DNA from: Anaerolineae bacterium
GTDB taxonomy: Bacteria; Chloroflexota; Anaerolineae; S140-20
Assembly: GCA_027021705.1 (NCBI GenBank)
Contig: JALUTT010000005.1
Location: 10,838-74,837 of the forward strand
Length of the DNA: 64,000 nucleotides
Reading direction: 5' to 3'
The notes beneath the pieces are model-generated. The model made no database searches and was not told the origin of the DNA. It saw nothing but the letters and a program-made list of their open reading frames with translations. Made by a program: the position numbers and the translations under genes. Shown piece after piece: positions 25,157 to 63,090 of this stretch; position 1 is the stretch's first letter, and each line of letters starts with the position of its first letter.

Positions 25157-25219
25157 GGGTGGGGAACGCGCCACAAGGGCTGAGGCCAGGGGGGAGGAAC
25201 GAACGAGGAGCAGAGAACG

Positions 25220-27436: not shown

Positions 27437-27446
27437 GAGGCAAACG

Positions 27447-28259: not shown

Positions 28260-28275
28260 AGGGAAGGCGTGGAGA

Positions 28276-30333: not shown

Positions 30334-30545
30334 GATGTGGATTCTGCGGTTACGAGTTCGACCCGGCCAATGCCGAGGCCGCCTGCAGCGGCTGTCCGCT
30401 GCTCGGTGACTGCCACCTGGTTCGCTGTCCGCGCTGTGGTTACGAGATGCCGCCGGAGGCAAAACTTGTGGGCTGGCTGCGTCGGCTGCGCCAGCGTAAA
30501 CGGGCCAAGAAAGCATCTTCACAAGGAGAGACTTCATGCAGTTGA
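30330..30545 (+). CDS. Small Cys-rich protein associated with feoB
   Basis: 7 Cys (CGFC, CSGC, C, CPRC); overlaps both neighbours. Confidence 0.7.
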   Translation: MRCGFCGYEFDPANAEAACSGCPLLGDCHLVRCPRCGYEMPPEAKLVGWLRRLRQRKRAKKASSQGETSCS

Positions 30546-31816: not shown

Positions 31817-31888
31817 TCCGATTCCGCAGAGCCTCTGCGCTCTCCCCGCCTCGGCGGTGGGGAAAGTGCGAAATGGAGGGTAGAAGGT

Positions 31889-32641
31889 GTGGTGATGGAC
31901 GCTTCGGACACTTCGAGAAAGAACATTCTCCTACAGATGGCCGGACTGGCGGGGGGCGTCGCCGCCCTCTGGCTGCCGCTCTTCGTCCTGCTCTTCTTCG
32001 GCCTGATGCCTGCGTTGGGACTGGACGTCAACCGGTTTGGTGACCCCGGCCACGTCCTGCCCTTCTTCGCCGACCATCCGGTCCTCATCCGGCTGGCCGG
32101 CCTGGTGAACGTCGTCGGGTTGACGGCGGCTGGCTTCTTCGGGCTCGTCCTGGCCCGGCAACTCTATCCGGCCGCGCCCGGCCCGGCGACGCTGGGCGGT
32201 TTCCTGACCCTCGTCGCCTGGCTCCTGATCCTGGTCGCCGAGGCGCTGGACCTGGCCGCCTACGTCAGCCTGCCCGCAACCTACGCCCGCGATCCGTCCG
32301 CCGCCGGGCTGGCCTTCGTCGCCTTGCAGACCGCCGGCCGCATGACCCGCACCTGGGGCTACCTGCTGGTCGGGCTGGGGGTCGGAGCTCTGGGCTGGGG
32401 CATGTCCCGCCAGGCCGGCTGGCCCCGTGGCCTCAGCCTCCTGGGAGTGCTCGGGGCGGCCGTCGGAGTGGTGATGTTCACCCTGGAGTACCTCTTTGTC
32501 ACCCAGACAGGGGATGCGGGGGGCGGCATGGCCCAGGTATTCACGGTGCTCTTCATCGCCACAGGGCTGATCGTCACCCTCTGGCACGCCTGGGGCGGAA
32601 TGCGGCTGGCGAGAGGCCACAACGAAACCTCGGAGGTCTGA
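31889..32641 (+). CDS. Multi-pass membrane protein (DUF4386-like)
   Basis: About six hydrophobic helices, WPRGLSLLG motif. Confidence 0.55.
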   Translation: MVMDASDTSRKNILLQMAGLAGGVAALWLPLFVLLFFGLMPALGLDVNRFGDPGHVLPFFADHPVLIRLAGLVNVVGLTAAGFFGLVLARQLYPAAPGPATLGGFLTLVAWLLILVAEALDLAAYVSLPATYARDPSAAGLAFVALQTAGRMTRTWGYLLVGLGVGALGWGMSRQAGWPRGLSLLGVLGAAVGVVMFTLEYLFVTQTGDAGGGMAQVFTVLFIATGLIVTLWHAWGGMRLARGHNETSEV

Positions 32642-32671
32642 CTGGTTATCGCACAGATTCAGGAGAGGCTA

Positions 32672-35206
<2,535 letters not shown>

Positions 35207-40340: not shown

Positions 40341-41060
40341 GTGGCAGCACGGAAGAAGCGACGGAAGCGAGCCCGAAGGCTCCAATCCCGGGCGCGTCCC
40401 CGGCCCACGCGGGGCCGCACCTGGCTGCGGGGGCACGGATGGCTCATCGGCCTGATCGCCCTGCTGCTGGTGGGCGGCATCGGTGCAGTCTTCCTGATCC
40501 AGCGGGGAACCGAGGACACCCCGCCGAGTGAGGAAGTGAGCCTGGACAAGAGCAAGGGGGCCGCCGATGCCCCGGTGGTGGTGGTGGAGTACGGGGATTT
40601 CCAGTGACCTTACTGCCGGCTTTTCGCCACCGGCGCGGAGCGTCGGCTCGAGGAGGAGTTCGTCAGCCAGGGTAAAGTGCGCTTCGTCTTCCGCCATTTC
40701 GCCTTCATCGGCGACGAATCCCGTTGGGCGGCAGAAGCTTCGGAGTGCGCCAACGAACAGGGCCGTTTCTGGGACTACTACGACAAGCTTTTTGAAGAGC
40801 AATCTGGTGAGAACGTCGGCACCTTCGGCAAGGAGAACCTGAAGCGCTTTGCCGCCGAGTTGGGCCTGGATACCGAGCGGTTCAACCAATGCCTCGATTC
40901 AGGCCGCTATCAGACGAAGGTGCAACAGGAGCTGATCGAGGGCCGCCAGAAGGGTGTTCGCGGCACCCCGACCCTCTTCGTCAACGGACAGCTCATCGAG
41001 CGTGGCGGGGACTACCAGGTGCTCCGGGCAGCTATTCTGGCTGCGCTGGGCGATCGGTAG
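40341..41060 (+). CDS. Membrane-anchored DsbA/BdbD-like selenoprotein (UxxC; Sec at TGA 40605-40607)
   Basis: ORFs 40341-40607 and 40677-41060 share a frame: EYGDFQ-TGA-PYC...GKVRFVFRHF...AAEASECA..QGRFW...GTPTLFVNG; SECIS-like stem 40630-40646. Confidence 0.88.
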
Positions 41061-41272
41061 GTTCCTGCAGGAGGCTGCGGGAACCCTTTCCTCCCTTCCA
41101 GCGTCTAGGGAACAGACGCCCAAGTCTGCTCCGGGTGACGCCTATTCGTGCCCCATTCGCGGAGGGCCCATCTTCCTACCTTGTTGGCGCAGCCGGCGAA
41201 ACAGGGGTACCATCGGGTCGTCACCCGCAGATGGATCACCCGGATGCTGGATGTGCAAGGAGGGAAGTCCCG

Positions 41273-44200
41273 ATGACGACGCAACGGTCTCGCCGCTGGA
41301 TCGCTCTGGGAGGCCTGGTCACCATCGCCCTGATCGCGATGGTCGCCGGCCTGGCTCGGCGGGGGCAACCGTCTGCCTCCCCTACCCCCTCTTCGGTTCC
41401 CATCGTCCTCCAGACGGCCACGCCTCGTCCATCACCCACGCCGCTGCCCACGCCCCCGCCGGTGGGCTACACCCCTGTCCCGCCGGACACGGTGCCGGCC
41501 CTCGTCATCCAGCGCAGCCCCGAGGCGGGCCGAGAACTCCCCCTCGACGGCACCATTGAGCTGGTCTTCGACCGCCCGATGGATCCGCAGACCGTCGAGG
41601 CGGCCCTCCGGTTCTACCCGCCTGTGGAGGGCACCCTCCGGTGGGTGGATCGGCGCACCCTCCGCTTCCGGCCCAGCACCCCCCTGCAGCGGGGAGCGGT
41701 CTACGATCTGGTGCTGACCCAGGCCGCCCGCGCCGCCGACGGCGCTCCCCTCAACCAGGCCTATCGCTTCCGCTTCCAGACTGTGGGCTTCTTGGAGGTC
41801 GCCCAGGTGGTCCCCGCCGACGGCACCCAGGAGGTGGACCCCGCCAGCGCCACCATCACCGTCCTCTTCAACCGGCCCGTCGTGCCCCTGAAGGCGCTGG
41901 AGGAGCAGGGGGACCTCCCCCAGCCCCTCACCCTTTGCACCGGCGACCCCTGCACCCCCGTCCCCGGCCACGGGGAGTGGGTGAACACGTCCATCTACCG
42001 CTTCGTGCCCGAGGGACCGCTGGCCGGCGGCACCGTCTACACCGCCCGCATCGCCGCCGGCCTGACCGACACCACCGGCGGCCTCCTGGCCGAGGACTTT
42101 GTCTGGCACTTCGCCACGGCCGCCCCCCAGGTCGTCCAGGTCTCCCCCGCCGACGAGTCCGCCCTGGTCCCGGTGGACCGCCCCATCATCGTCCGCTTCA
42201 ACCAGCCGGTGGACCCGGCCTCGGCCCAGGCCGCCTTCCGCATCAGCCCGGCCGTCGTCGGCACCTTCCAGGTGCTGACCGACACGCTGACCTTCACGCC
42301 CACCCAGCCGATGGCCTTCGACACCACCTACCAGGTGACGGTCGAGGCCGGCGTCACCAGCGCGGCCGGCGGCCGGGGGATGGCTGCGCCCTACCGCTGG
42401 CGCTTCAGGACGGTCCCCTTGCCGCGCATCCTCGACACCAAGCCCCGCGACGGCGAGGAGGCTGCCGACCCCTACGCCCCCTTCCAGATCCGCTTCAACG
42501 CGCCCATTGACCCGGCCACCGTGATGCCCAACCTCACGGTGACACCTCCTCTCTCGCCCACCCAGGTCTACACCTACTTCAACCCCTCGGACAACACCTT
42601 CGTCCTCTACTTCGGGGCGGAGCCCTCCACCGACTACGAGGTGCGCATCGGCCCCCACATCGCCGACCCTTACGGCAACGAGACGGGCCAGTCCCTCACC
42701 GTCCGCTTCCGCACCGCCCCCCTGGAGCCCGAGGTCCGCCTCTTCACCCCCGGCGTGGGCACCTACAGCGCCTACCGACCGGCCCGCCTCTACATCCAGG
42801 CGCTCAACGTCTCCCGCCTGGAGGCCCGTCTCTACCGCCTGGACCTCGACCGGATGATCCCTTCCCTGTCGAAGGGGTGGTACGACTTCACCCCGCCCGA
42901 TTCCGCCCTCCTGCGCCGGTGGTCCCAGCCCGTCGAGGCCCCCCAGAACAAGGCGGTCTTCCAGCGGCTGGACCTGAGCGAGGATGGGGGGCCGCTGCCT
43001 GCCGGCCTCTACTGGTTGGAGGTGTCGGCGCCGGAACTCCCGCCCGACCGCTGGCGACGGGTGCGGCTCCTGCTCGTCGTCACGCCCGTCAATCTGACCC
43101 TCAAGGCGAGCCCCCGTGAGGTCCTCGTCTGGGCCACGGACCTGGCCACCGGCGAGCCCGTCGCCGGGCTTCCCCTCACCCTCTACGGACGCGAAGGGGA
43201 GGTCATCGCCCAGGCCACGACCGACGGGCAGGGGCTGGCCACCATCGCCCGGCCTGCCCGGACGGAGGGCTACGGCCTGTGGGTGGTGAGCCGCGAGCCC
43301 TTCAGCGCCGCCAGCACCGACTGGGGCATGGGCATCAGCCCCTGGGACTTCGGGCTGGAGCCGGGGTACGGGATGGCGGCCTACCGCGTCTACGTCTACA
43401 CCGACCGTCCCATCTACCGACCCGACCAGACTGTCCACTTCCGGGGCATCGTCCGGGCCGAGGAGGACGTCCGCTACAGCCTCCCCGCCGGCCTGCGGCA
43501 GGTCCACGTGACCGTGCGAGATGCCGCCTACGAGGTGGTCTACGAGGAGACGCTTCCCCTCAGCGAATTCGGCACCTTCCACGGTGAGGTGGCGCTCTCC
43601 CCCACGGCCGCCCTAGGCCAGTACATCATCGAGGTCACCTTCCAGGACCAGGGGTACAGCACCAGCTTCCTGGTGGCCGCCTACCGCCCACCCCAGTTCG
43701 AGGTGACGGTCACGCCCGATGCCCCGGAGATCGTCCAAGGTCAGGGAACTTCGGTGACGGTGGAGGCCCGCTACTTCTTCGGCGCTCCCCTGACCAACGC
43801 CCCTGTGGAGTGGAACCTGCTGGCCGAGACCTACCGCTTCCAGCCCCCTTGGGGCGGACGCTACCGCTTCAGCGACCCCGACGATCCGTGGGTCTGCTTC
43901 GACTGCTGGTGGTGGCGGGAGCCCCCGGTGCCGGAACCGATCCTCAGCGGTCAGGGCCGGACCGACGCCCAGGGCCGGCTGGTCATCACCCTGCCGGAGG
44001 CGCTCCAGTGGCCCGACGGCCGGCCCATCACCACCAGCGTCCGCCTCACCCTGGAGGCCACCGTCACCGGCCCCGACAACCAGGTGATCGCCGGCCGGGG
44101 GGAGATCATCCGTCACCAGGGCCGCTTCTACATCGGCCTGGCCCCCCGCCGGTACGTGGGCGAGGCCGGCCGGGAGATGAGCGTGGACCTGGTGGCGGTG

Positions 44201-47200
44201 GACTGGGAGGGGAACCGACTGCCCGGCCAGGAGATCGTCGTCCAGGTCTCCCGGTGCGAGTGGATCAACACCTTTGTCGAGGAGCCGGGAGGTGGGCACT
44301 GGGAGTGGGAGACCCGGGAGACGCCCATCACCACGGTCACCGTCACCACCGACGGACGGGGGGAGGCCGTCGTCAACTTCACGCCCCCGGAGGGAGGCTC
44401 CTACCACGTCGTGGCCCTGGGGAAGGACGAGGGAGGGCGCACCGTCCGATCCGGCCTCTTCCTCTGGGTCAGCGGACCGGGCTACGTCTCCTGGCGGCGG
44501 GAGAACCACGACCGCATCACGCTGATCACGGACAAGAGCAGCTACCGGCCCGGCGAGACGGCCGAGATCCTGATCCCCTCCCCCTTCCAGGGGCCGCACT
44601 GGGCGCTGGTGACGGTTGAGCGGGGCACCCTCCGCCGCTACGAACTGGTCCGTATGGAGAGCAACAGCCAGGTCTACCGGCTGCCCCTCACCGCCGAGGA
44701 CGTGCCCAACGTCTACGTCTCCGTCGTGCTGGTCCAGGGGGAGGAGGCCACCGGACGGGCGGCCGACTACAAGGTGGGCTACGTGCCCTTGACCGTGGAG
44801 CCGGTGCCTCAGACCCTGCGGATCACGCTGACCCCCGACCGGGAACAGGCCGGGCCGGGGGAGGCGGTGCGCTACCGGGTTCGGGTGACGGACGCCGAGG
44901 GGGAGCCGGTCCGGGCGGAGCTCTCGCTGGACCTGGTGGACAAGGCGGTGCTGAGCCTCCAGCCCCGCGAGCCGGAGGCCATCGTTCAAGCCTTCTACGG
45001 CCGGCGTCCCCTGGCGGTGCAGACGGCCAGCGGCCTGGCCCTCGCCCTCAACCGGATGGTGCCCCAGGAGGTCGAGGAGCAGGTACGAGAGGTCAAGACG
45101 GTCGCCCAGGAGGAGGTCCTCCCGGCGGCCCCGGCTCCTACCGAAGGGCCGATGGAGAGGCCGGGGGCGGTCGAGAAGATGGCGGAAGCCGAGACCTTGG
45201 CCGCTGCACCACCGCCGGAGGTGAACGTCCGCCAGGAGTTCGCCGACACCGCCTTCTGGCAGCCCGACCTGGTGACCGACGAGCGGGGAGAGGCGGAGGT
45301 GACGGTGACGCTGCCCGACAACCTGACCACCTGGGTGATGCGGGGTGTTGGCCTGACGGCGGAGACCCAGGTGGGCGAGGCGACGGTGGAAGTGGTGGCG
45401 ACGAAGCCGCTCCTGATCCAGCCGATCACGCCCCGCTTCTTCGTCGTCGGCGACCGGGTGGCCCTGGCCGCCACCGTTCACAACAACACGGACCAGACCC
45501 AGGAGGCGACGGTCACCCTCTACGGCAGCGGCGTCACGCTGGACACGGAGCGCACCCCCGGCCCGGAGCAGCGGGTGACGCTGCCGGCCGGCGGCGAGGC
45601 CAAGGTGACCTGGTGGGTGACGGTGGAAGATGCCCTCTACGCCGACCTCACCTTCGTCGTCCGGGGGGATGGCTACGAGGATGCCAGCAAGCCCCGGCTG
45701 GCGACCGGCCCCGACCAGACGCTGCCCATCTACCGCTACAGCGTGCCCGAGGTGGTGGCGACGGGTGGGCAACTGGAGGCGGCCGGCTCCCGCACCGAGG
45801 TGATCGCCCTCCCCCCACGATACAACGACCGCCAGGGGGAGCTGACGATCCGCCTGGACCCCTCACTGGCGGCGGCGACACGGGAGGGGCTGCGCTACCT
45901 GGAGCGCTTCCCCTACGAGTGCACCGAGCAGATCGTCTCCCGCTTCCTGCCCAACGTCCTGACCTACCGGACGCTGCGGAAGCTGGGGATCGCCGATCCT
46001 GAGCTGGAGGCCCGGCTGCCCGCCCTGGTCGAGGAGGGGCTGGAGAAGCTCTATCGGCGGCAGAACGAGGATGGGGGCTGGGGCTGGTGGCCCGACGACG
46101 AAAGCAACCCCACCCTCTCCGCCTACGTCCTCTTCGGGCTGCTCCAGGCCCAGGAGGCCGGCTTCCCCGTCCGGGACGACGTGCTGGAGCGGGGGCTCAC
46201 CTACTTGGAGGCGCAGGTGGAGCCGGCCCGCCGGCTGGAGGCGAGCGCCCAGGCCAACCGGCAGGCTTTCTTCCTCTTCGTCCTGGCCGAGGCGGGCCGG
46301 CCCGACGAGGCGGCGATGGATGCCCTCTTCCGGCGGCGGGAGATGCTGGGCCTCTACGCCCGCGCCTACCTGGCGATGGGGCTGGGCCGGGCGGCGGGGG
46401 CCGAGGACCCGCGCGTCACCACCCTCCTCTCCGACCTGAACAACGCCGTCATCCTCAGCGCCACGGGAGCCCACTGGGAGGAGCGGGAGGTGGACTGGTG
46501 GGCGATGAACACCGACACCCGCTCGACGGCGATCATCCTGGAGGCGCTGGTGCGGCTGGACCCGGAGAACGGGCTGCTGCCCAACGTCGTCCGCTGGCTG
46601 ATGGTGGCCCGGCGGGATGGGCACTGGGAGACGACCCAGGAGACGGCCTGGGCGCTCATCGCGCTGACCGACTGGATGGCGCGGACAGGAGAGTTGGAAG
46701 GGGCTTACGACTATGCCCTCTGGCTGAACGATGAGGAGCTGGCGACAGGGACGGTGACCCCGGCAACGGTGGACGAGCCGGTGACGTTGCAGGTGGCGGT
46801 GGCCGATCTGCTGCGGGATGTGGGGAACCGGCTGACGGTGGCCCGGAGCGAGGGGCCGGGCCGGCTCTACTACACGGCGCACCTGCGGGTCTTCCTCCCC
46901 GTCGAGGAGGTGGAGCCACTGGACCGGGGGATCATCGTCCGTCGGCGCTACACCCTGGCCGACTGCGAGGAAGGCCCCGCCTGTCCCGACGTGCGGGAGG
47001 TGCGGGTGGGCGATGTGATCCGGGTGGACCTGACCATTATCGCGCCCAACGACCTCTACTACGTCGTCGTCGAGGACCCGCTGCCGGCGGGGGCGGAGGC
47101 GATTGACACGGGGCTGGCGACGACGAGCCTGCTGGAGGGCGGGCCGGCCCTGCGCCGTCGGACGGAGCGGGGGGCGTGGTGGGAGTCCTTCTACGCCTGG

Positions 47201-47422
47201 TGGTGGCGCTGGTACAGCCGGAGCGAGCTGCGGGACGAGAAGGTGGTGCTCTTCGCCGACTACCTGCCCCGGGGCACCTACGAGTACAGCTACACGATGC
47301 GGGCGGTGCAGCCGGGCGAGTACCGGGTCATCCCACCCACGGCGAGGGAATTCTACTTCCCGGAGGTGCAGGGGCGGGGAGCGGGCCGGTTGTTGACGGT
47401 GACCGAACCCTTGAATCACTGA
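41273..47422 (+). CDS. Alpha-2-macroglobulin family protein with N-terminal Ig-like domains
   Basis: TM anchor, Big_5-like domains, YTDRPIYRP, LPDNLTTW, thioester PYECTEQ, DGGWGWW, TTQETAW, EDPLPAG; ATG 41273 after AAGGAGG. Confidence 0.92.
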   Translation: MTTQRSRRWIALGGLVTIALIAMVAGLARRGQPSASPTPSSVPIVLQTATPRPSPTPLPTPPPVGYTPVPPDTVPALVIQRSPEAGRELPLDGTIELVFDRPMDPQTVEAALRFYPPVEGTLRWVDRRTLRFRPSTPLQRGAVYDLVLTQAARAADGAPLNQAYRFRFQTVGFLEVAQVVPADGTQEVDPASATITVLFNRPVVPLKALEEQGDLPQPLTLCTGDPCTPVPGHGEWVNTSIYRFVPEGPLAGGTVYTARIAAGLTDTTGGLLAEDFVWHFATAAPQVVQVSPADESALVPVDRPIIVRFNQPVDPASAQAAFRISPAVVGTFQVLTDTLTFTPTQPMAFDTTYQVTVEAGVTSAAGGRGMAAPYRWRFRTVPLPRILDTKPRDGEEAADPYAPFQIRFNAPIDPATVMPNLTVTPPLSPTQVYTYFNPSDNTFVLYFGAEPSTDYEVRIGPHIADPYGNETGQSLTVRFRTAPLEPEVRLFTPGVGTYSAYRPARLYIQALNVSRLEARLYRLDLDRMIPSLSKGWYDFTPPDSALLRRWSQPVEAPQNKAVFQRLDLSEDGGPLPAGLYWLEVSAPELPPDRWRRVRLLLVVTPVNLTLKASPREVLVWATDLATGEPVAGLPLTLYGREGEVIAQATTDGQGLATIARPARTEGYGLWVVSREPFSAASTDWGMGISPWDFGLEPGYGMAAYRVYVYTDRPIYRPDQTVHFRGIVRAEEDVRYSLPAGLRQVHVTVRDAAYEVVYEETLPLSEFGTFHGEVALSPTAALGQYIIEVTFQDQGYSTSFLVAAYRPPQFEVTVTPDAPEIVQGQGTSVTVEARYFFGAPLTNAPVEWNLLAETYRFQPPWGGRYRFSDPDDPWVCFDCWWWREPPVPEPILSGQGRTDAQGRLVITLPEALQWPDGRPITTSVRLTLEATVTGPDNQVIAGRGEIIRHQGRFYIGLAPRRYVGEAGREMSVDLVAVDWEGNRLPGQEIVVQVSRCEWINTFVEEPGGGHWEWETRETPITTVTVTTDGRGEAVVNFTPPEGGSYHVVALGKDEGGRTVRSGLFLWVSGPGYVSWRRENHDRITLITDKSSYRPGETAEILIPSPFQGPHWALVTVERGTLRRYELVRMESNSQVYRLPLTAEDVPNVYVSVVLVQGEEATGRAADYKVGYVPLTVEPVPQTLRITLTPDREQAGPGEAVRYRVRVTDAEGEPVRAELSLDLVDKAVLSLQPREPEAIVQAFYGRRPLAVQTASGLALALNRMVPQEVEEQVREVKTVAQEEVLPAAPAPTEGPMERPGAVEKMAEAETLAAAPPPEVNVRQEFADTAFWQPDLVTDERGEAEVTVTLPDNLTTWVMRGVGLTAETQVGEATVEVVATKPLLIQPITPRFFVVGDRVALAATVHNNTDQTQEATVTLYGSGVTLDTERTPGPEQRVTLPAGGEAKVTWWVTVEDALYADLTFVVRGDGYEDASKPRLATGPDQTLPIYRYSVPEVVATGGQLEAAGSRTEVIALPPRYNDRQGELTIRLDPSLAAATREGLRYLERFPYECTEQIVSRFLPNVLTYRTLRKLGIADPELEARLPALVEEGLEKLYRRQNEDGGWGWWPDDESNPTLSAYVLFGLLQAQEAGFPVRDDVLERGLTYLEAQVEPARRLEASAQANRQAFFLFVLAEAGRPDEAAMDALFRRREMLGLYARAYLAMGLGRAAGAEDPRVTTLLSDLNNAVILSATGAHWEEREVDWWAMNTDTRSTAIILEALVRLDPENGLLPNVVRWLMVARRDGHWETTQETAWALIALTDWMARTGELEGAYDYALWLNDEELATGTVTPATVDEPVTLQVAVADLLRDVGNRLTVARSEGPGRLYYTAHLRVFLPVEEVEPLDRGIIVRRRYTLADCEEGPACPDVREVRVGDVIRVDLTIIAPNDLYYVVVEDPLPAGAEAIDTGLATTSLLEGGPALRRRTERGAWWESFYAWWWRWYSRSELRDEKVVLFADYLPRGTYEYSYTMRAVQPGEYRVIPPTAREFYFPEVQGRGAGRLLTVTEPLNH

Positions 47423-47455: not shown

Positions 47456-47763
47456 GAGGCCGGGCCGCCAATCCGTTGATAGCCGTCCGCGCCGGTGAAG
47501 GTAGCCCGGGAGTATCACGAAGGGCACGACGGACACAAAGGGGAATCCGTTCAATCCGCTCCCCTAATCCGTTGACAGCCGTCCGCTTTGGAACGGATGG
47601 CTGTCAACGGATTTGAGAACGGATTGAGCGGATGGGAGGCACAGTCCTCGGTCCTCAGTCCTCAGTCCGCCGCCAAGCCGCCAGCCGCTATGCCGCTAGG
47701 CCGCTAAGCCGCCCTGGAACGGATCGCTGTCAACGGATTTGAGAACGGATTGAGCGGATGGGA
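47456..47763. repeat. Composite intergenic repeat cluster
   Basis: AATCCGTT..GACAG units in both orientations forming a long hairpin (~47544-47633); (CAGTCCT)n/(GCCGCTA)n block at 47641-47712. Confidence 0.75.
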
Positions 47764-47912
47764 GATGGGCACTCCCCCTCGCCTCGCCGAACCTCGCGCC
47801 GCGCATTGGGCCGGCGGTGGTTCCGCCGGCGGGTTTGGCTCCATCTCGCACCGCCCGAGGCTGAGGCCGTCGGGCTGAGAAGGGGAAAGCCCTGCGGGCT
47901 GACCGCACCAGG

Positions 47913-48542: not shown

Positions 48543-48744
48543 CGCTCCTGCGCCGGCACCCTGATGACCTACCAGGTCATCATCCTCCAGCCCGTGCGGG
48601 AGCAGCTTGATCAATTACCCCAACACGTTCGTGGCAGGACCCTCAGGGGCATCGCCGCCCTAAAGGGGAATCCACGCCTCCGTGGCCATAGACCGAAAGG
48701 CCACGAGAACGCAGATCGTATCCGAGGCAGAAAAGGGGGCTGAG

Positions 48745-49227
48745 ATGAGCCGTGGGAATGGTGCCATTGACCTCTCCCCGATGGAGGAGGTTTTCGCCCG
48801 ATATGCCGATCAACCCAACGCCCTGATCCCTATCTTGCAGCAGACTCAGGCGCTCTACGGCTACCTGCCGAGGGAGGCCCTGGAACGGATCGCGGAGAGG
48901 CTGCGAATCTCCCTGGCCAAGGTCTACGGCGTGGCCACCTTCTACGCCCAGTTCTACCTGGAGCGCCGGGGAAGACACGTGCTCAAGCTGTGCGATGGGA
49001 CGGCCTGCCACGTGAAAGGGACACCCACCCTGCTGGTGGCCGTCGAGGAGGAGTTCAACATTGGTCCCGGTGAGACGACGGAGGACGGTCAACTGACCGT
49101 GGAGATCGTCTATTGTCTGGGCTCCTGCGCGCTGGCCCCCGTCGCCGTCCTTGACGAGCGCGTGATGGGTCGGATGCGACCGGAGATGCTGGTACGCCGG
49201 GTGAAACGGCAGATCGGGGCCCGATAG
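48745..49227 (+). CDS. NuoE/HydC-like 2Fe-2S subunit of the formate dehydrogenase complex
   Basis: YGVATFYAQF, CDGTACHVKG, CLGSCALAP. Confidence 0.9.
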   Translation: MSRGNGAIDLSPMEEVFARYADQPNALIPILQQTQALYGYLPREALERIAERLRISLAKVYGVATFYAQFYLERRGRHVLKLCDGTACHVKGTPTLLVAVEEEFNIGPGETTEDGQLTVEIVYCLGSCALAPVAVLDERVMGRMRPEMLVRRVKRQIGAR

Positions 49228-49351
49228 TCTCCCCCGGGCAGTGAAGCCCTCGGGCGTTCTACAAGGGATGCCCGCCGGGCCTGTGGCTGCGCGAAGGGGG
49301 AGGCCGCCGGAGCGACCCGGTCGCCCTTCGACCTCGCGAAAGGAGAGCCAG

Positions 49352-51256
49352 ATGGTAGCAGCGGAAAGGGAAGCTCTTTCGACCAGGCGGGAACAGGCGA
49401 AGCGGCACTGGCAGGAGAAGGTGAACGCCGATCTCTACATCACCATCGGCATGGGAACCTGTGGCTTGGCCGCCGGTGCCGGAGAAACGCTGACCGCGGT
49501 CGAAGCAGAGCTCAAGAGGCGAAACCTGCAAGCCAGGATCAGTCAGGTCGGTTGCGTGGGGATGTGCTCCTACGAGCCGATGATCGAGATCCAGGCGCGG
49601 GGCCGGCCCCGGATCAACTACGGAAATGCGGTGGCGGGCAACGTGCCGGAGGTCTTTGCGGCCTACTTCGAGGGAGCCCCCCTGCGCAAGAGCGTCGTCG
49701 TCGGCGAGGCCGTCTCCATCCTCATCCGGGGGAATGGCCACGCCTTGCACTCGCTGAGCTTCGTTGACCCCGATACCCACGAGAAGATCCCCTTCCACCG
49801 CAAACAGTTGCGCATTGTACTGAGCAACTGCGGGCTGATCAACCCCGAGTCCATTGACGACTACCTGGCCGTCGGAGGCTACGAGGCGCTGGAGAAGGTG
49901 CTCACCTCGATGACCCCCGAGGAGGTGATCGAAGAGGTGAGGCAGTCGGGGCTGCGGGGCCGGGGCGGCGGTGGGTTCCCCACCGGCCTGAAGTGGAAGT
50001 TTGCCCGCCAGACCCAGAAGTGGCCCAAGTACGTCATCTGCAACGCCGACGAGGGCGACCCAGGGGCCTTTATGGACCGCTCTGTGCTCGAAGGGGACCC
50101 CCACTCGGTGATCGAGGGGATGATCATCGCCGGGTACGCCATCGGTGCCAGCCAGGGCTACATCTATTGCCGGGCCGAGTATCCCCTGGCCATCAAACGG
50201 CTGAAGATCGCCCTGGCCCAGGCTCGGGAGCTGGGCCTGCTGGGCGAGCGGATCCTGGGCTCCGACTTCAGCTTCGACATCACCATCGCGGAGGGGGCTG
50301 GGGCCTTCGTCTGCGGAGAGGAGACCGCCCTGATGGCCTCGATCCAGGGAGAGCGGGGGCAACCCCGGCCTCGCCCGCCCTATCCCGCCGTCTCCGGGCT
50401 ATGGGGACAGCCCAGCAACGTCAACAACGTGAAGAGCTACGCTTACGTGCCGCGCATCATCCGCTTGGGGGCCGACTGGTTCCGTGGCCTGGGCACGGAG
50501 CGCAGCCCCGGCACCGCCGTCTTCACCCTCACCGGTATGGTCAACCGCACCGGGTTGATCGAGGTGCCGATGGGGATCACGTTGCGCGAGATCATCTACG
50601 ACGTGGGCGGAGGCATCCCCCAAGGGAAGCAGTTCAAAGCAGTGCAGACGGGAGGCCCCCTAGGGGGATGTCTGCCGGAGGCTCACCTGGACACGCCGGT
50701 GGATTTCGACTCGCTCCAGGCAGTAGGGGCGGTGATGGGCTCTGGGGGTATGATCATCGCCGACGAGACGACCTGCATGGTGGAGTTCGCCCAGTTCTTC
50801 ACCAAGTTCGTCTGCGACGAGAGCTGTGGCAAGTGCCCCCCGTGCCGCATCGGGAGCACCCGGATGCAGGAAGTCCTGGAGCGCATCACGGCGGGGGAGG
50901 GGAAGCCCGAGGACCTGGACGAGATCCGATGGCTGGCCCAAGGGATGCAGAAGGCTTCCCTGTGCGCCTTGGGGCAGTTGGCTCCCTCGCCGGTCATTTC
51001 GACGCTGCGCCACTTCGAGGAGGAGTACCGGGCACACATCGAGGAGAAGCGCTGCCCGGCCGGGAAGTGTCGCGCCCTGATCACCTACGAGATCGTGGCA
51101 GAGCTTTGCACGGGCTGCATGGTGTGCGCCCGCTACTGCCCGGCCGGGGCCATCCAGGGGAAGAAACGCCAGCCCCACGTCATAGACCCGGACCTCTGCG
51201 AGCGCTGCGGCCTGTGCAAGGAAGTCTGCAACTTCAACGCAGTCATCGTCATCTGA
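49352..51256 (+). CDS. NuoF/HydB-like FMN/NADH-binding subunit with N-terminal Trx-like 2Fe-2S and C-terminal 2x4Fe-4S
   Basis: GTCG, GCVGMC, LRGRGGGGF, NADEGDPGAFMDR, GAFVCGEETAL, ESCGKCPPCR, CTGCMVC..CP, CERCGLC. Confidence 0.92.
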   Translation: MVAAEREALSTRREQAKRHWQEKVNADLYITIGMGTCGLAAGAGETLTAVEAELKRRNLQARISQVGCVGMCSYEPMIEIQARGRPRINYGNAVAGNVPEVFAAYFEGAPLRKSVVVGEAVSILIRGNGHALHSLSFVDPDTHEKIPFHRKQLRIVLSNCGLINPESIDDYLAVGGYEALEKVLTSMTPEEVIEEVRQSGLRGRGGGGFPTGLKWKFARQTQKWPKYVICNADEGDPGAFMDRSVLEGDPHSVIEGMIIAGYAIGASQGYIYCRAEYPLAIKRLKIALAQARELGLLGERILGSDFSFDITIAEGAGAFVCGEETALMASIQGERGQPRPRPPYPAVSGLWGQPSNVNNVKSYAYVPRIIRLGADWFRGLGTERSPGTAVFTLTGMVNRTGLIEVPMGITLREIIYDVGGGIPQGKQFKAVQTGGPLGGCLPEAHLDTPVDFDSLQAVGAVMGSGGMIIADETTCMVEFAQFFTKFVCDESCGKCPPCRIGSTRMQEVLERITAGEGKPEDLDEIRWLAQGMQKASLCALGQLAPSPVISTLRHFEEEYRAHIEEKRCPAGKCRALITYEIVAELCTGCMVCARYCPAGAIQGKKRQPHVIDPDLCERCGLCKEVCNFNAVIVI

Positions 51257-51275
51257 CCGCGGGAGGGTGAACGCG

Positions 51276-54119
51276 ATGAGCGTAACGATAACCATCAATG
51301 GCCGACGGGTGGTCGCCCACGAGGGGCAAACGATCCTAGAGGCTGCCCGCTCGGCAGGCATCCCCATTCCAACCCTGTGCCACCACCCTGATCTGAGCAA
51401 CGTGGGGGCCTGCCGGATGTGCGTCGTGTCGGTCAAGGGGACCCGAGGGCTACAGACGGCGTGCACCACACCGGTCTCCGAAGGTATGGTCGTGGAGACG
51501 GAGAGCGAAGAGGCACGCGAGGCCCGCATCTTCACGCTGACCATGCTCCTTACCGATCACCCCAACGACTGCATGACCTGCGAGGTGAACGGGGAGTGCG
51601 AGCTGCAGGACCTGGTGTACGATTACGGCGTGGCCTGGCCCGAGCACAGCGGGGAGCGCCATACCTACCAGGTGGACCCGGACCCCAATCCCTTCCTCTT
51701 CATTGACCGCAACAAGTGCATCCTCTGTGGCCGCTGCATCCGCGCCTGCCGGGAGATTCAGAACCGAGATGTGTGGGACTTCGCCTACCGAGGTTTCAAG
51801 ACCAAGCTCGTGGCCGGCGCGGACCAGTTCCTGCTGGATGCGGGCTGTGAGAGCTGCGGCCAGTGTGTGGCCTACTGCCCTGTCGGTGCACTGTACGACA
51901 AGATGAGCGTCGGATTGGGGCGGGTGAGCCAGGTGACCCGGGTGCGCACCACCTGCTCCTACTGCGGCGTCGGCTGCAACTTTGACCTCAACGTGCGCGA
52001 TGGGCGCATCGTGCGTGTCACCAGTGCCCCCGACGCTCCGGTGAACGGTATGGCCCTGTGCGTGAAGGGCCGCTATGGCTACGACTACGTACACCACCCC
52101 GACCGATTGACCCGCCCGCTGGTCCGCGCCCGGTGGCTGGACCCGGCTCAGGTCGAAGAGCGGGTGGCCAGCGGCGAGTGGCGCGTGGCGGGAGACGAAT
52201 CCGCCACACCCGACGCCCCCCGAGAGGCGCCCGACCCGGATACCTTCATCGAGACCGACTGGGACACGGCGCTGGACGTGGTGGCCCGTCACTTCACCGA
52301 GACCAAGGCACGCTACGGCAGCGACGCCTTCGCCGTCCTCGCCTCGGCCAAGTGCACCAACGAGGAGAACTACCTCTTCAACAAGTTCACGCGGCAAGTG
52401 CTGGGCACGAACAGCATAGACCACTGCGCTCGGTTATGACACAGCGCCACCGTCGCCGGTCTGGCGACAAGCTTCGGCAGTGGCGCGATGACCAACTCCA
52501 TCCGGGACATTACCGAGGAGAGCCGGTGCATCTTTATCATCGGCAGCAATACGACCGAGCAGCACCCGGTCATCGGGATCAAGGTCCGCCGGGCCAAACG
52601 GTTCCGAGGGGCCAAGCTCATCGTGGCCGACCCGAGGCGCATTGACATCGCCGACTACGCTGACCTCCACCTGCGCCACAAGCCAGGGACGGACATCGCC
52701 CTGCTCAACGGCCTGATGCACGTCATCCTCCGCGAAGGGTGGCACGACCGGGACTTCATCGCCGAGCGGACGGAGGGGTTCGAAGAGCTGGAGACGGTGG
52801 TGAAGAAGTACACGCCGGAGGTGGTGAGCCAGATCACCGGCGTCCCGGCGGAGCAGATCGAGGAAGCGGCCCGGATGCTGGCAGAGAACCGGCCCGCTAC
52901 AGTCCTGTACGCTATGGGGATCACCCAGCACACCGTCGGGGTGGCCAACGTGATGAGCATCGCCAACCTGCAGATGCTGCTGGGCAACATGGGGGTGCCG
53001 GGAGGCGGCGTCAACCCGCTGCGGGGCCAGAACAATGTGCAGGGAGCCTGCGACATGGGCGGCCTGCCCAACGTCTACCCCGGCTACCAGCGGGTGACCG
53101 ATCCCGCCGCGCGGAAGAAGTTCGAGCGAGCCTGGGGGGTTCCCCTCCCGGATCAGGTGGGGCTGACCGTCACGGAGATGCTGAAGGCGGCAGAGACCGG
53201 GCGGGTGCGCTGCTTCTACATCATCGGCGAGGACCCGATGGTCAGCGACCCGGACCTGAACCACGTGCGCCGCGCCCTTCAACGGACAGAGTTCATCGTG
53301 GTGCAGGACCTCTTCTTCACCGAGACCGGTCGCTTCGCCCAAGTGATCCTCCCGGCGGCCAGCTTCGCCGAGAAGGAGGGCACCTTCACCAACACCGAGC
53401 GGCGCGTCCAGCGGGTGCGCAAGGCCATCGAGCCGCCGGGGGAGGCGAAGCCGGACTCCTGGATCATCGCCGAGCTGGCCAAGCGGATGATCGCCCTGGG
53501 GGCGGTCACCCCCCGCGAGGATGCCCCCTACGCGGGCTGGGACTACGCGACGGCGGCTGAGGTGATGGATGAGATCAACCGGCTCACCCCCATCTACGCG
53601 GGCATCACCTACCGGCGGTTGGAGGCGGGAGAGCAACTTCAGTGGCCTGTCCCCAGCGAGGACCATCCGGGCACGCCCATCCTCCACGTGGGCCGGTTCA
53701 GCCGGGGGTTGGGCCGCTTCGCGGCGGTAGAGCACGTGCCGCCCGACGAACTGCCGGACGAGGAGTACCCGCTGGTGCTGACCACAGGCCGTGTCCTCTA
53801 CCACTGGCACGGGGGAGAGATGACCCTGCGGGCTCGCGGTCTGGTGGCCGTCTACCCCGAAGCACTCATCGAGATCAGTCCTCAGGATGCCCGAAGGGCT
53901 CAGATCGAGGACGGTAGCCTGATGAAGGTGGTCTCACGCCGGGGGGAGATTGTCGCCAAGGCCCAGGTGACCGACCGCGTCGCGCCGGGGCTGGTCTTTG
54001 CCACCTTCCACTTCCCGGACTCTGCGGCCAACTTCCTCACCAACCCGGCCCTGGACCCTGTAGCCAAGATCCCCGAGTACAAGGTGTGCGCGGTGCGCGT
54101 GGAACCGCACGGACGTTAA
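51276..54119 (+). CDS. fdhA: Selenocysteine-containing formate dehydrogenase alpha subunit (Sec at TGA 52437-52439)
   Basis: NuoG-like N-terminal Fe-S clusters, [25 protein letters not shown] in frame with 52488-54119 ([16 protein letters not shown]). Confidence 0.93.
52452..52468 (+). promoter_or_regulatory. Bacterial SECIS element of fdhA
   Basis: GTCGCC-GGTCT-GGCGAC stem-loop 12 nt after the TGA, with the GGUCU apex of enterobacterial fdh SECIS. Confidence 0.8.
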
Positions 54120-54147
54120 CGCTTGCCGAAGAACAAGGAGGAGAGCT

Positions 54148-54552
54148 ATGGCAAAGCTCACGACGGTTGAAGGCATCGGAGAGGTCTACGCCCAGAAGCT
54201 GAAGGAGGCGGGCATCGAGACGACGGAGGCCCTGCTGGAGAAGGGGGCAACCCCCCAGGGCCGCCAGGAGATCGCCGAGCAGACGGGCATCAGCAAGACC
54301 CTGATCCTCAAGTGGGTCAACCGTGTAGACCTCTTTCGCGTCAAGGGGATCGGCGAGGAGTACGCCGACCTGCTGGAGGCAGCCGGGGTGGACACGGTGC
54401 CGGAACTGGCCCAGCGGAATCCCGAGAACCTCTACCGGAAGCTGGTGGAGGTGAACGAGGCCAAGAGGCTGGTGCGCCAACTCCCTTCCCAAGCTCAGGT
54501 GGAGGACTGGGTCGAACAGGCGAAGCAACTGCCCCGGGTGATTACCTACTGA
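54148..54552 (+). CDS. DUF4332 helix-hairpin-helix protein
   Basis: VEGIGEVY, WVNRVDLFRVKGIGEEYADLLEAAGVDTVPELAQRNP. Confidence 0.88.
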   Translation: MAKLTTVEGIGEVYAQKLKEAGIETTEALLEKGATPQGRQEIAEQTGISKTLILKWVNRVDLFRVKGIGEEYADLLEAAGVDTVPELAQRNPENLYRKLVEVNEAKRLVRQLPSQAQVEDWVEQAKQLPRVITY

Positions 54553-54558
54553 GGGCGC

Positions 54559-54586
54559 TTGACCTTCCGGCGGAGCGTGGTATAAT
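54559..54586 (+). promoter_or_regulatory. sigma70 promoter of the aspS leader
   Basis: TTGACC-N16-TATAAT with extended -10 TG. Confidence 0.75.
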
Positions 54587-54627
54587 CTTCAACACGGAGC
54601 CGTTGTGAAGCCGGTTGGAGCCTGCAG

Positions 54628-54717
54628 ATGATCGAGAGGGCCTACAGCGCTGGCCGCAAGAACAACGATAATGACGGGGACCGCTCCGGGCGGCCGCCCG
54701 TTCTTGGCCTGCGCTGA
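54628..54717 (+). CDS. Putative Asp/Asn-rich leader peptide (MIERAYSAGRKNNDNDGDRSGRPPVLGLR)
   Basis: GGAG RBS 7 nt before ATG; AAC AAC GAT AAT GAC GGG GAC at 54661-54681; lies between the promoter and aspS. Confidence 0.75.
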   Translation: MIERAYSAGRKNNDNDGDRSGRPPVLGLR

Positions 54718-54745
54718 CGGCCTGAGTCTTGCTCACGACGACACC

Positions 54746-54790
54746 GACGGGGACCGCCCACTGGAACCGAGGGGCGGTCCTCTTCGTTTT
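54746..54790 (+). terminator. Attenuator terminator hairpin upstream of aspS
   Basis: GGGGACCGCCC / GGGCGGTCCTC stem followed by TTCGTTTT. Confidence 0.7.
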
Positions 54791-54981
54791 GACCGCTCGT
54801 CTGGCTACCGGACCGTTGTCACCCTCCCGCAGGTCGCGCGGTGCCCGGCTACAGCAAGGTCCACCGGAGACTGCCTACGACACGCTTCAGGCCGTGGGAA
54901 GGACCTGCGGGAGGGTCTTCGGGCAATAGGTCAGGTAGCAAGACTGCTCGTCACCCTTCAACCCACCGGGGGAGGACAACG

Positions 54982-56745
54982 ATGATGAAGAGCCATACGT
55001 GTGGAGAGCTCCGTCCAGAGCACGCGGGCCAGGCGGTCACCCTGGCCGGCTGGGTCAACCGTCGCCGTGACCACGGCGGGCTGATCTTCATTGACCTGCG
55101 CGACCGCTGGGGGATCACCCAGGTGGTGGCCAACCCCGCCATCGCCCCCCAGGCCCACGCCGTAGCCGAGCAGGTCCGCAACGAGTACGTCATCCAGGTG
55201 CGGGGCACCGTCCAGGTTCGACCCGCCGGCCTGGAGAACCCCGACCTGGAGACGGGAGAGATCGAGGTGGTTGCCCAGGAGATCACCATCCTCAATCCCT
55301 CCAAGACCCCGCCCTTCTACATCAACGAGGACTCGCCGGTCGAGGAGGCGCTGCGCCTCAAGTACCGCTACCTGGACCTGCGCCGGCGGCGGATGCAGCG
55401 CAACCTGATCCTGCGCCACCGGGTGGTCAAGTTCATCCGCGATTTCCTGGATGAGCGGGGCTTCGTCGAGATCGAGACGCCCATCCTCTTCAAGAGCACG
55501 CCCGAGGGGGCGCGGGACTACCTGGTGCCCAGCCGGATCCATCCGGGCAAGTTCTACGCCCTGCCCCAGTCCCCCCAGCAGTTGAAGCAGCTCCTGATGG
55601 TCGCCGGCTACGAGCGCTACTTCCAGATCGCCCGCTGCTTCCGCGACGAAGACCTGCGGGGTGACCGCCAGCCGGAGCACACCCAGTTGGACCTGGAGAT
55701 GAGCTTCGTCGAGCAGGAGGACATCCTGAACCTGATGGAGGAGCTCTTCACCGCCCTGGTGGCCGCCGTGACCCCCCACAAGCGGGTCCTCTCCCCCTTC
55801 CCCCGCCTCACCTACGACGAGGCGATGGCCCGCTTCGGCACCGACAAGCCCGACCTGCGCTACGGGATGGAGCTCTCGGACCTCTCCGACCTGGTGGCGG
55901 AGAGCGGCTTCCGCGTCTTTGCCCAGGCGGTGGCCGGGGGCGGCCAGGTGAAGGCCATCGTCGCGCCGGGCTGCGCGGGCTACAGCCGGCGTCAGATTGA
56001 GGAGCTGACCCACCTGGTCCAGGAGCAGGGAGCGAAGGGGCTGGCCACCATAGCCTTGCTGGAAGGGGGGAAGGTCCGCTCCCCCATCGCCAAGTTCCTG
56101 GGCGAGGGGACGGTGCAGGCCATCGTGGAGCGGACGGAGGCGGGGGAGGGGGACCTGATCCTGATGGTCGCCGACGAGCCCAAGGTCGTTGCTCGGGCGC
56201 TGGACACGCTGCGCCGGGAGATGGCCCGCCGTCTCTCCCTGGCCGACCCCGACCTGCTGGCCTTCGCCTTCATCGTGGACTTTCCCCTCTTCAAGTGGGA
56301 CGAGGAGGCGGGGCGGTGGGACGCCGAACATCACCCCTTCACGATGCCCAAAGAGGAGGACCTGCCCTTGCTGGAGACGGACCCGGGGGCGGTGCGGGCC
56401 AACTGCTACGATATGGTCTGCAACGGCTACGAACTGGCCTCCGGCTCCATCCGAATCCACCGCCGCGACATCCAGGAGAAGATCTTCCGGCTGCTCAACT
56501 ACACGCCGGAGGAGGCCCAGGCTCGTTTCGGTCACCTGCTGACCGCCTTTGAGTACGGGGCGCCGCCCCACGGCGGCATCGCCCCCGGCATTGACCGGCT
56601 GGTGATGCTCCTGGCCGACGAGCCCAACATCCGGGAGGTGATGGCCTTCCCCAAGACCCAGCAGGCGATGGACCTGATGGCCGGTGCCCCCTCGCCGGTG
56701 ACGCCGGAGCAATTGGCGGAGCTGCACCTGCAAGTTGTGCTCTGA
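54982..56745 (+). CDS. aspS: Aspartate--tRNA(Asp/Asn) ligase, likely non-discriminating
   Basis: [15 protein letters not shown] (His as in non-discriminating enzymes), [34 protein letters not shown]. Confidence 0.96.
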
Positions 56746-57554
56746 GGGGGTAGGGGGTAGGGCAATCGCCCTGACATAGCGGTAGGAGCGCCCCCCCCTG
56801 CATCCTCACCCCAATAGTCACCGGCCACGCTCGGTTCAAAAGCCCTGCCGGCGCGAACAGCCCTTGGGTCGAGACACCCAAAGCCTGCCAGACTCCGGGA
56901 GTCCGAGGCAGTCAGCCCAACGCTTCTTCCCGTTAACCGGAGTCCCCATCCGCCCAACCCGCCTCAGAGCAATTCCACTTGTCTATTCGTTCACCAGAAA
57001 CCGGTCGAGGAGGCCCGCCCGGGCGCCGATAGGGCGCCCGGGCGGGCGTCCATACCCTCGCCCCCCCTCCCGCCTGGTTGGGGAATCGGACAACGAATGG
57101 GAAACGAATGAACGAATCGGCAGGCCGGCAAGTCACGAGGGCATTCGCTCATTCGCCCCCATTCGTCGCTTGGCCCGTTGCCCGGCCCGCTGACCAGGGG
57201 GAACCACCCATAGTGGCCGCTCGGTCGCTTGGTCGTTTGGTCAGGCGGTCACGTGGTTGGGTGGTCGAGTGGCCGCCCGGCCCCTAGTCTTCGTCCCTTG
57301 CCCCTCACTGTCCCGGCCCTCGGTGCCTTCTTCGGTCGGCGGTTGGATGAAGCCCTCATCCGCCCCATCCGTCCTGGAGCAAACCCATTCGTTGACCGGA
57401 AACCGGTCGAGGGAACCCACCCAGACGCCGATGCCCCTCACCCACCCAACCCGCCGGTCGCTCGGCGATTCAACAACTTTTGGTCACGCTCGGATCGTTT
57501 CGAACGGATACTGGGCAACCGAGGTGGCAAACGCGGGTTTAGCTTCTCTGGCTC

Positions 57555-57775
57555 TTGGCCCAGATTGACCACGGCACCGTGGCGCCGGTGTTCATCCTCA
57601 ACCGCCTCTCGGCCTCCCGCCCCCTCTACCGACCGGCCGACCGACTGGCTCAGGCAGTGCCGATCTACATGCTGGGCCTCCCGGCCGAAAAGTTCAACGA
57701 CAACCGGTTGGCGCGGACTCTGGAGGCCATCGCCCCCCACGCCGAGGCCGTCGGGCAGGAGGTGGTCCAGGGAAT
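57555..57775 (+). pseudogene. IS1634-family transposase N-terminal fragment
   Basis: ILNRLSASRPLY...LGLPAEKFNDNRLARTLEAI resembles the DUF4277 region; truncated. Confidence 0.65.
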
Positions 57776-57798
57776 GCGGACTATGGACCACCCGACCA

Positions 57799-60526: not shown

Positions 60527-61074
60527 GGCGAGAGACACGAAGGACACCAAGAGCTCAAAGGACACAAAGCGGTACGGAAGTCTGGACAAATCCTCTTGGG
60601 AGCACCAGCCCCCCATCCGTTCCAAATCCGTTCAATCCGTTCCCCAATCCGCTGACAGCTATCCGTTCCAAATCCGCTCAATCCGTTCCCAATCCGTTGA
60701 CAGCTTGTCCGCTCCGGCCACGGCGAGAGACACGAAGGACACCAAGAGCTCAAAGAGCACAAAGCGGTACGAAAATCTGGACAAGCCCTCTTGGGGGCAC
60801 CAGCCCCCCATCCGTTCCAAATCCGTTCAATCCGTTCCTCAAATCCGTTGACAGCTTGTCCGCTCCGGCCACGGCGAGAGACACGAAGGGCACCAAGAGC
60901 TCAAAGGACACAAAGCGGTACGAAAGTCTGGACAAGCCCTCTTGGGAGCACCAGCCCCCCATCCGTTCCAAATCCGTTCAATCCGTTCCTCAAATCCGTT
61001 GACAGCTATCCGCTCCGGCCACGGCGAGAGACACGAAGGACACCAAGAGCTCAAAGGACACGAAGCGGTACGAA
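60527..61074. repeat. Tandem array of ~150-bp units (three full, one partial)
   Basis: Units start GGCGAGAGACACGAAGG at 60527, 60722, 60873 and 61023; the first carries a ~44-bp internal duplication. Confidence 0.9.
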
Positions 61075-61089
61075 GAGAAGCGCTCCGGC

Positions 61090-61242
61090 GGTGATTACCC
61101 ATATCTTTGGAGATAGGGAGACTGGCCGTCCACGAATGGGGCACGAATACACGAATTGAGGACCGCCTCATTCGTGCATTTGTGAGAAATTCGTGGACGG
61201 CCTGCTACGGACCACTCTCCCGCCCACTTATGGGTCATCACC
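61090..61242. mobile_element. ~150 bp MITE-like element, copy 2 (inverted relative to 7900-8049)
   Basis: GGTGATTACC...GGTCATCACC ends; aligns end to end with the reverse complement of 7900-8049. Confidence 0.7.
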
Positions 61243-61761: not shown

Positions 61762-61900
61762 GGCACCGAGGGATGGGGGATGAGGCACCGAGGGGGAGGG
61801 GTGAGAGGCACCGAGGGATGGGGGATGAGGCACCGAGGGGCGGCTTAGCGACTGGCGGCTTAGCGGCGGACTGAGGACTGAGGACTAAGGACTGAGGACC
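61731..61900. repeat. Composite short-repeat element (GAGGCACCGAGGG x5, GCGGCTTA units, (GGACTGA)n)
   Basis: Same modules at 62895-63090 and 63944-64000, and reversed at 47641-47712. Confidence 0.8.
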
Positions 61901-62895: not shown

Positions 62896-63090
62896 GGGGG
62901 GAGGCACCGAGGGGGGAGGCGATGAGGTAATGAGGGATGAGGCGATGAGGCGACGAGGAGGGAGGCACCGAGGACCGAGGACCGTACACGACCGCCGACG
63001 GCGGACCGCCGACCGCCGACCTAGCGGCCTAGCGGCTTAGCGCCCGGCGGCTTAGCGGCGGACTGCGGACTGAGGACTGAGGACCGTGGA
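62895..63090. repeat. Composite short-repeat element, second copy
   Basis: GAGGCACCGAGG, CTAGCGG/CTTAGCG and GGACTGA modules. Confidence 0.75.

Follow-up and report, generated by a model that had tools for sequence, protein, structure and literature searches.

The logic of classical leader-peptide attenuation is that of the trp, his and pheST leaders. Among aminoacyl-tRNA synthetase genes, to our knowledge, this type of control is established by experiment essentially for pheST only, and we are aware of barely any documented case beyond Proteobacteria and Actinobacteria. As far as we know, aspS is usually viewed either as T-box controlled or as unregulated; in Firmicutes, aspS and hisS-aspS have T-box leaders (RF00230). 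Leaders with mixed regulatory codons are represented by the enterobacterial thr leader (Thr and Ile) and ilv leader (Ile, Val and Leu). An earlier note on the DNA studied here knew of no described aspS attenuator of the leader-peptide kind, and we found none in the full-text literature that we searched, nor any Asp/Asn leader peptide of aspS; Lopatovskaya et al. 2010, reportedly a survey of attenuators of synthetase operons, might include such predictions. The excerpts of PMC1262725 predict classical attenuators for two Streptomyces genes, trpS2 and leuS, and name pheST as the precedent. In the excerpts of PMC2659441, a motif in the Shewanella aspS 5' UTR is tabulated as a 'tRNA synthetase leader' with a terminator, and no mechanism is given.

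Our subject is the leader of aspS in a single sequence, a 64-kb window (the whole stretch of DNA analyzed) of contig JALUTT010000005.1 from an Anaerolineae bacterium, with a G+C content of 67%. The leader has a promoter-like site on the same strand as the gene, an upstream open reading frame (uORF) with a Shine-Dalgarno (SD) sequence and an ATG, a cluster of Asp and Asn (D/N) codons, and an intervening putative terminator. We consider it reasonably probable, at roughly 60%, that it is a classical ribosome-mediated (leader-peptide) transcription attenuator, a claim to which we give moderate weight because the prediction rests on a single sequence.

Layout of the aspS leader and its Asn/Asp codon run

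All elements of the leader lie inside a gap of 429 nt between a gene for a DUF4332 protein (54148-54552) and aspS (54982-56745), on the + strand. The earlier note had claimed a promoter, a ribosome-binding site, a uORF and four complementary segments in this gap, and each was located by direct reading of the sequence where that note had placed it; these elements, their geometry and their rarity are what the present analysis establishes. The promoter-like site (54559-54586) is of the sigma-70 type and consists of TTGACC (54559-54564), a 16-nt spacer and an extended -10 element, TG-n-TATAAT (54578-54586), matching the consensus at 11 of 12 positions. A promoter scan of 54000-55500 returned two sites, compared with 0.1 expected from shuffled sequences, and no other + strand site was among them. 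It lies 395 nt upstream of aspS, and the transcript start that it predicts is near 54593-54594.

The uORF (54628-54717) has 29 codons (MIERAYSAGRKNNDNDGDRSGRPPVLGLR) and ends at a TGA (54715-54717). It is a predicted reading frame with an SD core, GGAG (54617-54620), located 7 nt ahead of the ATG at 54628, and this core begins at -11, the commonest position for such cores among the ATG-started genes of the window. The GC3 of the frame is 0.83, compared with 0.66 and 0.55 in the other two frames, and the predicted genes here range from 0.73 to 0.92. The encoded peptide had no match in a family search, and a natural ORF of 104 aa overlapping the leader had no homologue among the proteins of 57-182 aa that were searched.

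The candidate regulatory codons are AAC AAC GAT AAT GAC GGG GAC (N-N-D-N-D-G-D; 54661-54681). Asn and Asp account for 1.97 and 4.72% of the codons in 32 predicted genes, respectively, and N-N-D-N-D-G-D is the sole seven-codon stretch with at least six D/N codons among the 127,960 read from the whole window in six frames; among small ORFs of 10-60 aa (n = 549), the second-best run scores 4. Besides common codons, the run contains AAT and GAT, which are rarer and supply 10% of Asn codons and 26% of Asp codons, respectively. It stands directly upstream of aspS, the one gene whose product handles the corresponding tRNAs. No further leader-peptide candidates emerged from the intergenic regions of the window, including those before hisIE and proC, when small ORFs were screened for at least 4 of one residue in 7 and for a position suggesting regulation of these genes.

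The gene downstream encodes a bacterial-type aspartyl-tRNA synthetase (AspRS) of 587 aa that scores 869 bits with NF001750, for which the cut-off is 443. Its Pfam domains are tRNA_anti-codon, tRNA-synt_2 and GAD, and NCBIfam classifies it with the aspS_bact equivalog. The earlier note had taken this enzyme to be non-discriminating from its DHGG signature. The N-terminal anticodon-binding domain scores best against the solved Asp/Asn ligases 4wj3 and 4rmf, and all three proteins have RRRDHGG and RPxG..NP (here RPAGLENP), whereas E. coli AspRS (1c0a) has RRRDLGS and RDEK (RDEKNINRD) at the same places. The His and Gly at these two positions of the anticodon domain are those reported to permit recognition of tRNA(Asn). 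The full-length protein, by contrast, scores best against the Asp-only AspRS of T. thermophilus. Judged by its sequence, then, it is the N-terminal domain that resembles the non-discriminating form. Neither asnS nor gatCAB was found among the 34 proteins scanned in the 64-kb window.

Competing helices and models of ribosome stalling

The leader contains four segments that can pair in alternative ways, and the competing pairings 1:2, 2:3 and 3:4 put forward in the earlier note are borne out by the complementarity of these segments. Segment 1 (GACGGGGACCGCT; 54673-54685) overlaps codons D16-R19 of the uORF and has segments 2 and 4 as alternative partners. Segment 2 (GGGCGGCCGCCCGTT; 54688-54702), in which GGGCGGCCGCCC is a self-palindrome, is the partner of segment 1 or, as the antiterminator, of segment 3 (GACGGGGACCGCCC; 54746-54759). 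Segment 3, which provides the terminator's 5' arm, has two possible partners, segment 2 and segment 4 (GGGCGGTCCTC; 54772-54782), the latter being followed by TTCGTTTT at 54783-54790. The 1:2 pairing has an energy of -16.8 kcal/mol, and segment 1 is part of an inverted repeat with 18-nt arms that are 78% complementary. Read on the minus strand, the 1:2 hairpin (54674-54701) is followed by TTATCGTTGTTCTT and resembles an intrinsic terminator facing aspS, which might serve to end antisense transcription or might follow from the A-richness of the Asn/Asp codons.

Of 1000 dinucleotide shuffles of the upstream part, 10 gave a duplex as strong as 2:3 (-24.2 kcal/mol), and no other stretch of the upstream leader is a better partner for segment 3 than segment 2. 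Segments 1 and 3 are indeed near-identical: they have an exact 12-mer in common, within a longer match of 23 nt that is 83% identical. A 12-mer repeat with one mismatch allowed is not significant in itself, with 2 found compared with 1.94 expected.

The putative intrinsic terminator (54749-54790) consists of an 11-bp G+C-rich stem (GGGGACCGCCC at 54749-54759 paired with GGGCGGTCCTC), a 12-nt loop and then TTCGTTTT. Folding gives this 11-bp stem -25 to -26 kcal/mol. Of the 12 terminator candidates on the + strand of the window, it is one of the strongest. The U-tract, TTCGTTTT, is interrupted, and a terminator consensus scan reported only a version with a 5-bp stem, with 1 match compared with 0.9 in shuffled sequences. 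The nested fold in which 1:4 encloses 2:3 has an energy of -54.2 kcal/mol.

From these elements, we infer where transcription starts, that the uORF is translated, and that ribosomes stall and polymerase terminates or reads through, events that would be connected in the following manner. Transcription would begin near 54593 from the promoter at 54559-54586, and a ribosome would translate the 29-codon uORF while RNA polymerase advances. Under a shortage of Asp-tRNA(Asp) or Asn-tRNA(Asn), the ribosome would stall on the N-N-D-N-D codons (54661-54675) and cover segment 1. Segment 2, left free, would then pair with segment 3, and segment 4 would be partnerless for the duration of the stall, because segment 3 would be held in the 2:3 duplex and its near-copy, segment 1, would be inside the ribosome. 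With 2:3 formed and segment 4 partnerless, the polymerase would therefore continue into aspS. If no ribosome loads, or if one translates as far as the TGA at 54715, the RNA would adopt either 1:2 together with 3:4 or 2:3 together with 1:4, and both of these folds would place a stem right before TTCGTTTT, leading to termination. If this is true, it is the duplicated arm (segments 1 and 3) that makes either of the non-stalled folds terminate. Since segments 1 and 3 are near-copies, read-through requires both that segment 1 is in the ribosome and that segment 3 is bound by segment 2, and in the models described below a stall on the D/N run would supply exactly these two needs. A non-discriminating enzyme acylates both tRNAs, so that a run with codons for Asn as well as Asp would signal a shortage of both of its products.

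The ribosome was modelled with a footprint whose leading edge lies 14 nt beyond the first base of the A-site codon. With the A site on N12-D16, the footprint ends at 54675-54687, covering segment 1 and reaching no further than the base before segment 2 (54688), while stalling at G17 or D18 would cover segment 2 in part. In stepwise folding of the ribosome-free RNA, three structures appear one after another: a 1:2 hairpin, which we regard as a candidate pause site, a long hairpin spanning the uORF almost from end to end and beyond its stop (54633-54731), and the 3:4 terminator. The untranslated leader folds as one large domain that incorporates the 5' UTR, and in the full-length RNA at equilibrium the terminator is always favoured, a dominance that is also seen for known attenuators.

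When the 5' part is masked up to a ribosome on N12-D16, 2:3 belongs to the minimum-energy fold of the nascent RNA, and with the ribosome on the stop codon and the 5' part masked, the minimum-energy fold is without 2:3. The outcome depends on what else is occupied. With a single ribosome as the mask and a free 5' UTR, the fold with 2:3 forced lies 2.6-9.3 kcal/mol above the minimum, and the probability of 2:3 is at most 0.21 at 37 °C. Adding a queued ribosome raises this probability to 0.57 (N12), 0.98 (N13) and 0.63 (D14), and from N15 onward it is about 0, all at 37 °C. The notion that a stalled ribosome frees segment 2 is compatible with the geometry and with the minimum-energy folds, where 2:3 is favoured during a stall on N12-D16 with the 5' part masked and is lost on the stop codon, but at equilibrium 2:3 is populated only at N12-D14 and only when the 5' region is occupied as well. 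Because 2:3 is favoured only under some of the masking conditions, the thermodynamics are compatible with the mechanism and are no proof of it.

Conservation, surrounding sequence and rival explanations

The leader was compared with 80 related aspS loci retrieved by a genome scan, all with at most 70% AspRS protein identity; the best relatives are Chloroflexota MAGs (Anaerolineae and Dehalococcoidia) with 52-70% identity. The earlier note had proposed to look for conserved D/N-rich uORFs in relatives, and this expectation failed at every locus examined: a comparable uORF, D/N run or leader was found in 0 of the 80, none of which exceeds 70% AspRS identity. Such a comparison is a weak test of conservation because all of the loci share at most 70% AspRS identity, and leaders are rarely retained at such evolutionary distances. 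Across the 80 loci, blastn returned just chance matches of 13-41 nt (best E 0.054) and nhmmer nothing. The nearest relative (L001, 70% identity) has a short and plain leader, and none of the terminators upstream of aspS in 32 loci was stronger than -17.5 kcal/mol. Upstream neighbours differ among the related loci, so that there is no synteny, and a tblastn search of the 80 loci with the upstream DUF4332 gene gave no match. Rfam found no T-box in 20 of the 80 loci (L001-L020), where it reported 3 tRNAs and a tmRNA.

A few candidates in these loci were inspected and dismissed. Four D/N-rich windows came from two loci, in one case inside the upstream gene in another frame (L049) and in the other in an AT-rich spacer (L022), and two weak D/N-uORF hits among 33 loci were both AT-rich and had no terminator; none of the weak matches in L009, L022 and L049 was retained.

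Between the terminator and aspS lie 191 further nucleotides, which with their 150-nt hairpin are outside the classical attenuator design. This long and near-continuous hairpin of about 150 nt (54795-54946) has a core of 15 nt (54821-54835/54902-54916) that is 100% complementary, and direct repeats of 11 nt, GACCGCTCGTC and GACTGCTCGTC (54791-54801 and 54942-54952), border it on either side. The second half of the leader is more stably folded than its shuffled versions (z = -3.55), with 0 of 200 shuffles folding equally well. The SD of aspS, GGGAGGA (54970-54976), is mostly paired in a predicted small local hairpin, with pairing probabilities of 0.74-0.99 for 54970-54975. This second half may constitute a second, translational layer of control, or it may be a hairpin-forming insertion with a target duplication. 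The leader was also considered as a repeat or mobile element, and this was rejected: it has no second copy in the window and is outside the family of dispersed intergenic repeats found there. The members of that family are partly palindromic and lie at 7900-8049, 47544-47764, 60527-61242, 61838-61900 and 63022-63088, with units of about 45 nt at 88-95% identity and a tandem array of units of about 150-200 nt at 60527-61074.

Several other features of the window were recorded. Upstream of the DUF4332 gene, two adjacent ORFs at 51267-54119 (+ strand) make up one molybdopterin oxidoreductase of the formate dehydrogenase type, with an in-frame TGA (52437-52439) in the motif HCARL-U-HSATV that is most likely a selenocysteine codon; NuoE/NuoF-like genes precede it (48682-51256). 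Downstream of aspS, the stretch of about 1 kb at 56746-57798, up to the end of a minus-strand histidine kinase gene, contains no tRNA, Rfam family or Pfam-matching ORF; a 90-nt repeat occurs twice within it (56941-57030 and 57351-57432), along with a 43-nt palindrome (57009-57051). Positions 1-2749 of the window, where a simple gene filter gave no genes, are 66-88% similar at the DNA level, on the opposite strand, to 41566-44072, which falls within an alpha-2-macroglobulin-like gene of 2177 aa (40889-47422); this similarity suggests that the window starts in a second, minus-strand paralogue running off its edge. A metal-handling cluster at 17251-35206 includes three P-type ATPases with HMA domains, an ArsR-type regulator, FeoB and a DtxR/FeoA-type protein.

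Other explanations of the leader have to be weighed against attenuation by translation of the uORF. It is conceivable, although we regard it as unlikely, that the terminator is real and that its control does not depend on the uORF, being exerted instead by a protein (e.g., AspRS acting on its own leader), by uncharged tRNA or by a small molecule, with the D/N run as an incidental feature. Such control would agree with the folding of the leader, both halves of which are far more structured than shuffled sequences (z = -3.17 for the first half, and the value given above for the second), with the single large domain in which the untranslated leader engages its 5' UTR, and with the low occupancy of 2:3 under a single ribosome mask. 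However, an Rfam search of 54000-55500 at E-values up to 10 gave no T-box (RF00230), its only match being a spurious one to a lncRNA (E 0.044), and at the gathering score Rfam found neither a T-box nor any other family in the whole window. Two GUCAC motifs that might mimic the anticodon of tRNA(Asp) are located in stems or at their edges, not in hairpin loops, and we rejected them as tRNA mimics. Control of this kind would also leave the unique D/N run, its SD and its in-frame ATG as a coincidence. It is similarly improbable that the promoter and the terminator delimit a separate small gene, for an RNA of about 200 nt or an mRNA for the 29-aa peptide, with aspS expressed through leakage or from an unrecognized downstream promoter. 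The two do bound a compact unit of about 197 nt that is 191 nt away from aspS, and its absence from the related aspS loci examined is what would be expected of a lineage-specific small gene; yet there are no promoter-like sites on the + strand between 54587 and aspS, the peptide is without a family match, the amino acids in which it is enriched are exactly those handled by the product of the next gene, and segments 1-4 overlap in the fashion of an attenuator.

That the elements are due to chance or are a relic with no regulatory role, the A-rich run possibly being the T-tract of a minus-strand terminator, we regard as the least probable of these explanations and as quite improbable. On the minus strand, the hairpin at 54674-54701 is followed by TTATCGTT, as such a terminator would be, but no minus-strand gene would end there: going upstream along that strand, the first gene ends at 57799, beyond aspS. 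Chance complementarity is abundant in G+C-rich DNA, as illustrated by segment 3, for which 37 of 1262 other 147-nt stretches of the window offer a partner as strong as segment 2, and conservation is absent in the loci compared. Against this, it is very unlikely that a promoter, an SD, an ATG, a unique D/N run, overlapping helices and a terminator would occur jointly by chance before aspS. Ribosome-mediated attenuation is the reading that we prefer.

Comparison with known attenuators

If the aspS leader is an attenuator of this kind, a shortfall in the supply of aspartate, in AspRS or in amidation by GatCAB in the indirect Asn-tRNA pathway would feed back on aspS, offering a simple handle on the balance of AspRS supply in cells with indirect synthesis of Asn-tRNA. 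With a leader that senses Asp and Asn, leader-peptide attenuation would gain a new amino acid specificity, and the mechanism would be extended to a deep-branching and poorly studied phylum. We suggest tentatively, and with rather more doubt than we attach to the mechanism itself, that this would be the first leader peptide to read Asn and Asp codons jointly and the first classical attenuator in a Chloroflexota-like lineage, and that it would couple a non-discriminating AspRS to the charging of both tRNAs.

In its anatomy, the leader fits the trp, his and pheST logic. One described system that it resembles in its parts is pheST of E. coli, where a uORF rich in codons for the synthetase's own amino acid is likewise followed by overlapping hairpins, a terminator and the synthetase gene. 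The two differ in the amino acids, which are Phe in pheST and Asn plus Asp here, and in the phylum, the relatives of the present locus being Chloroflexota MAGs. In addition, the leader described here continues past the terminator with 191 structured nucleotides, and it is a prediction from a single sequence without conservation in the loci compared. The attenuators of trpS2 and leuS in Streptomyces are, according to the excerpts of PMC1262725, also predicted leader-peptide attenuators of synthetase genes outside Proteobacteria, but they were derived from alignments of multiple genomes, whereas ours comes from one sequence.

In using codons for more than one amino acid, so that several charged tRNAs would be sensed together, the aspS leader resembles those of thr and ilv; in these, however, the mixture reflects shared biosynthetic pathways, whereas here it would reflect one enzyme that charges two tRNAs. 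The T-box leaders of Firmicutes involve the same gene and the same output, namely read-through of a leader terminator in response to uncharged tRNA, but they bind the tRNA directly, whereas we propose that the tRNA is sensed by a translating ribosome. For the Shewanella aspS motif, as for ours, a structured leader and a terminator are predicted ahead of aspS, and we liken the two by description only; the organism is unrelated, and the excerpts of PMC2659441 describe neither a leader peptide nor Asp/Asn codons for it.
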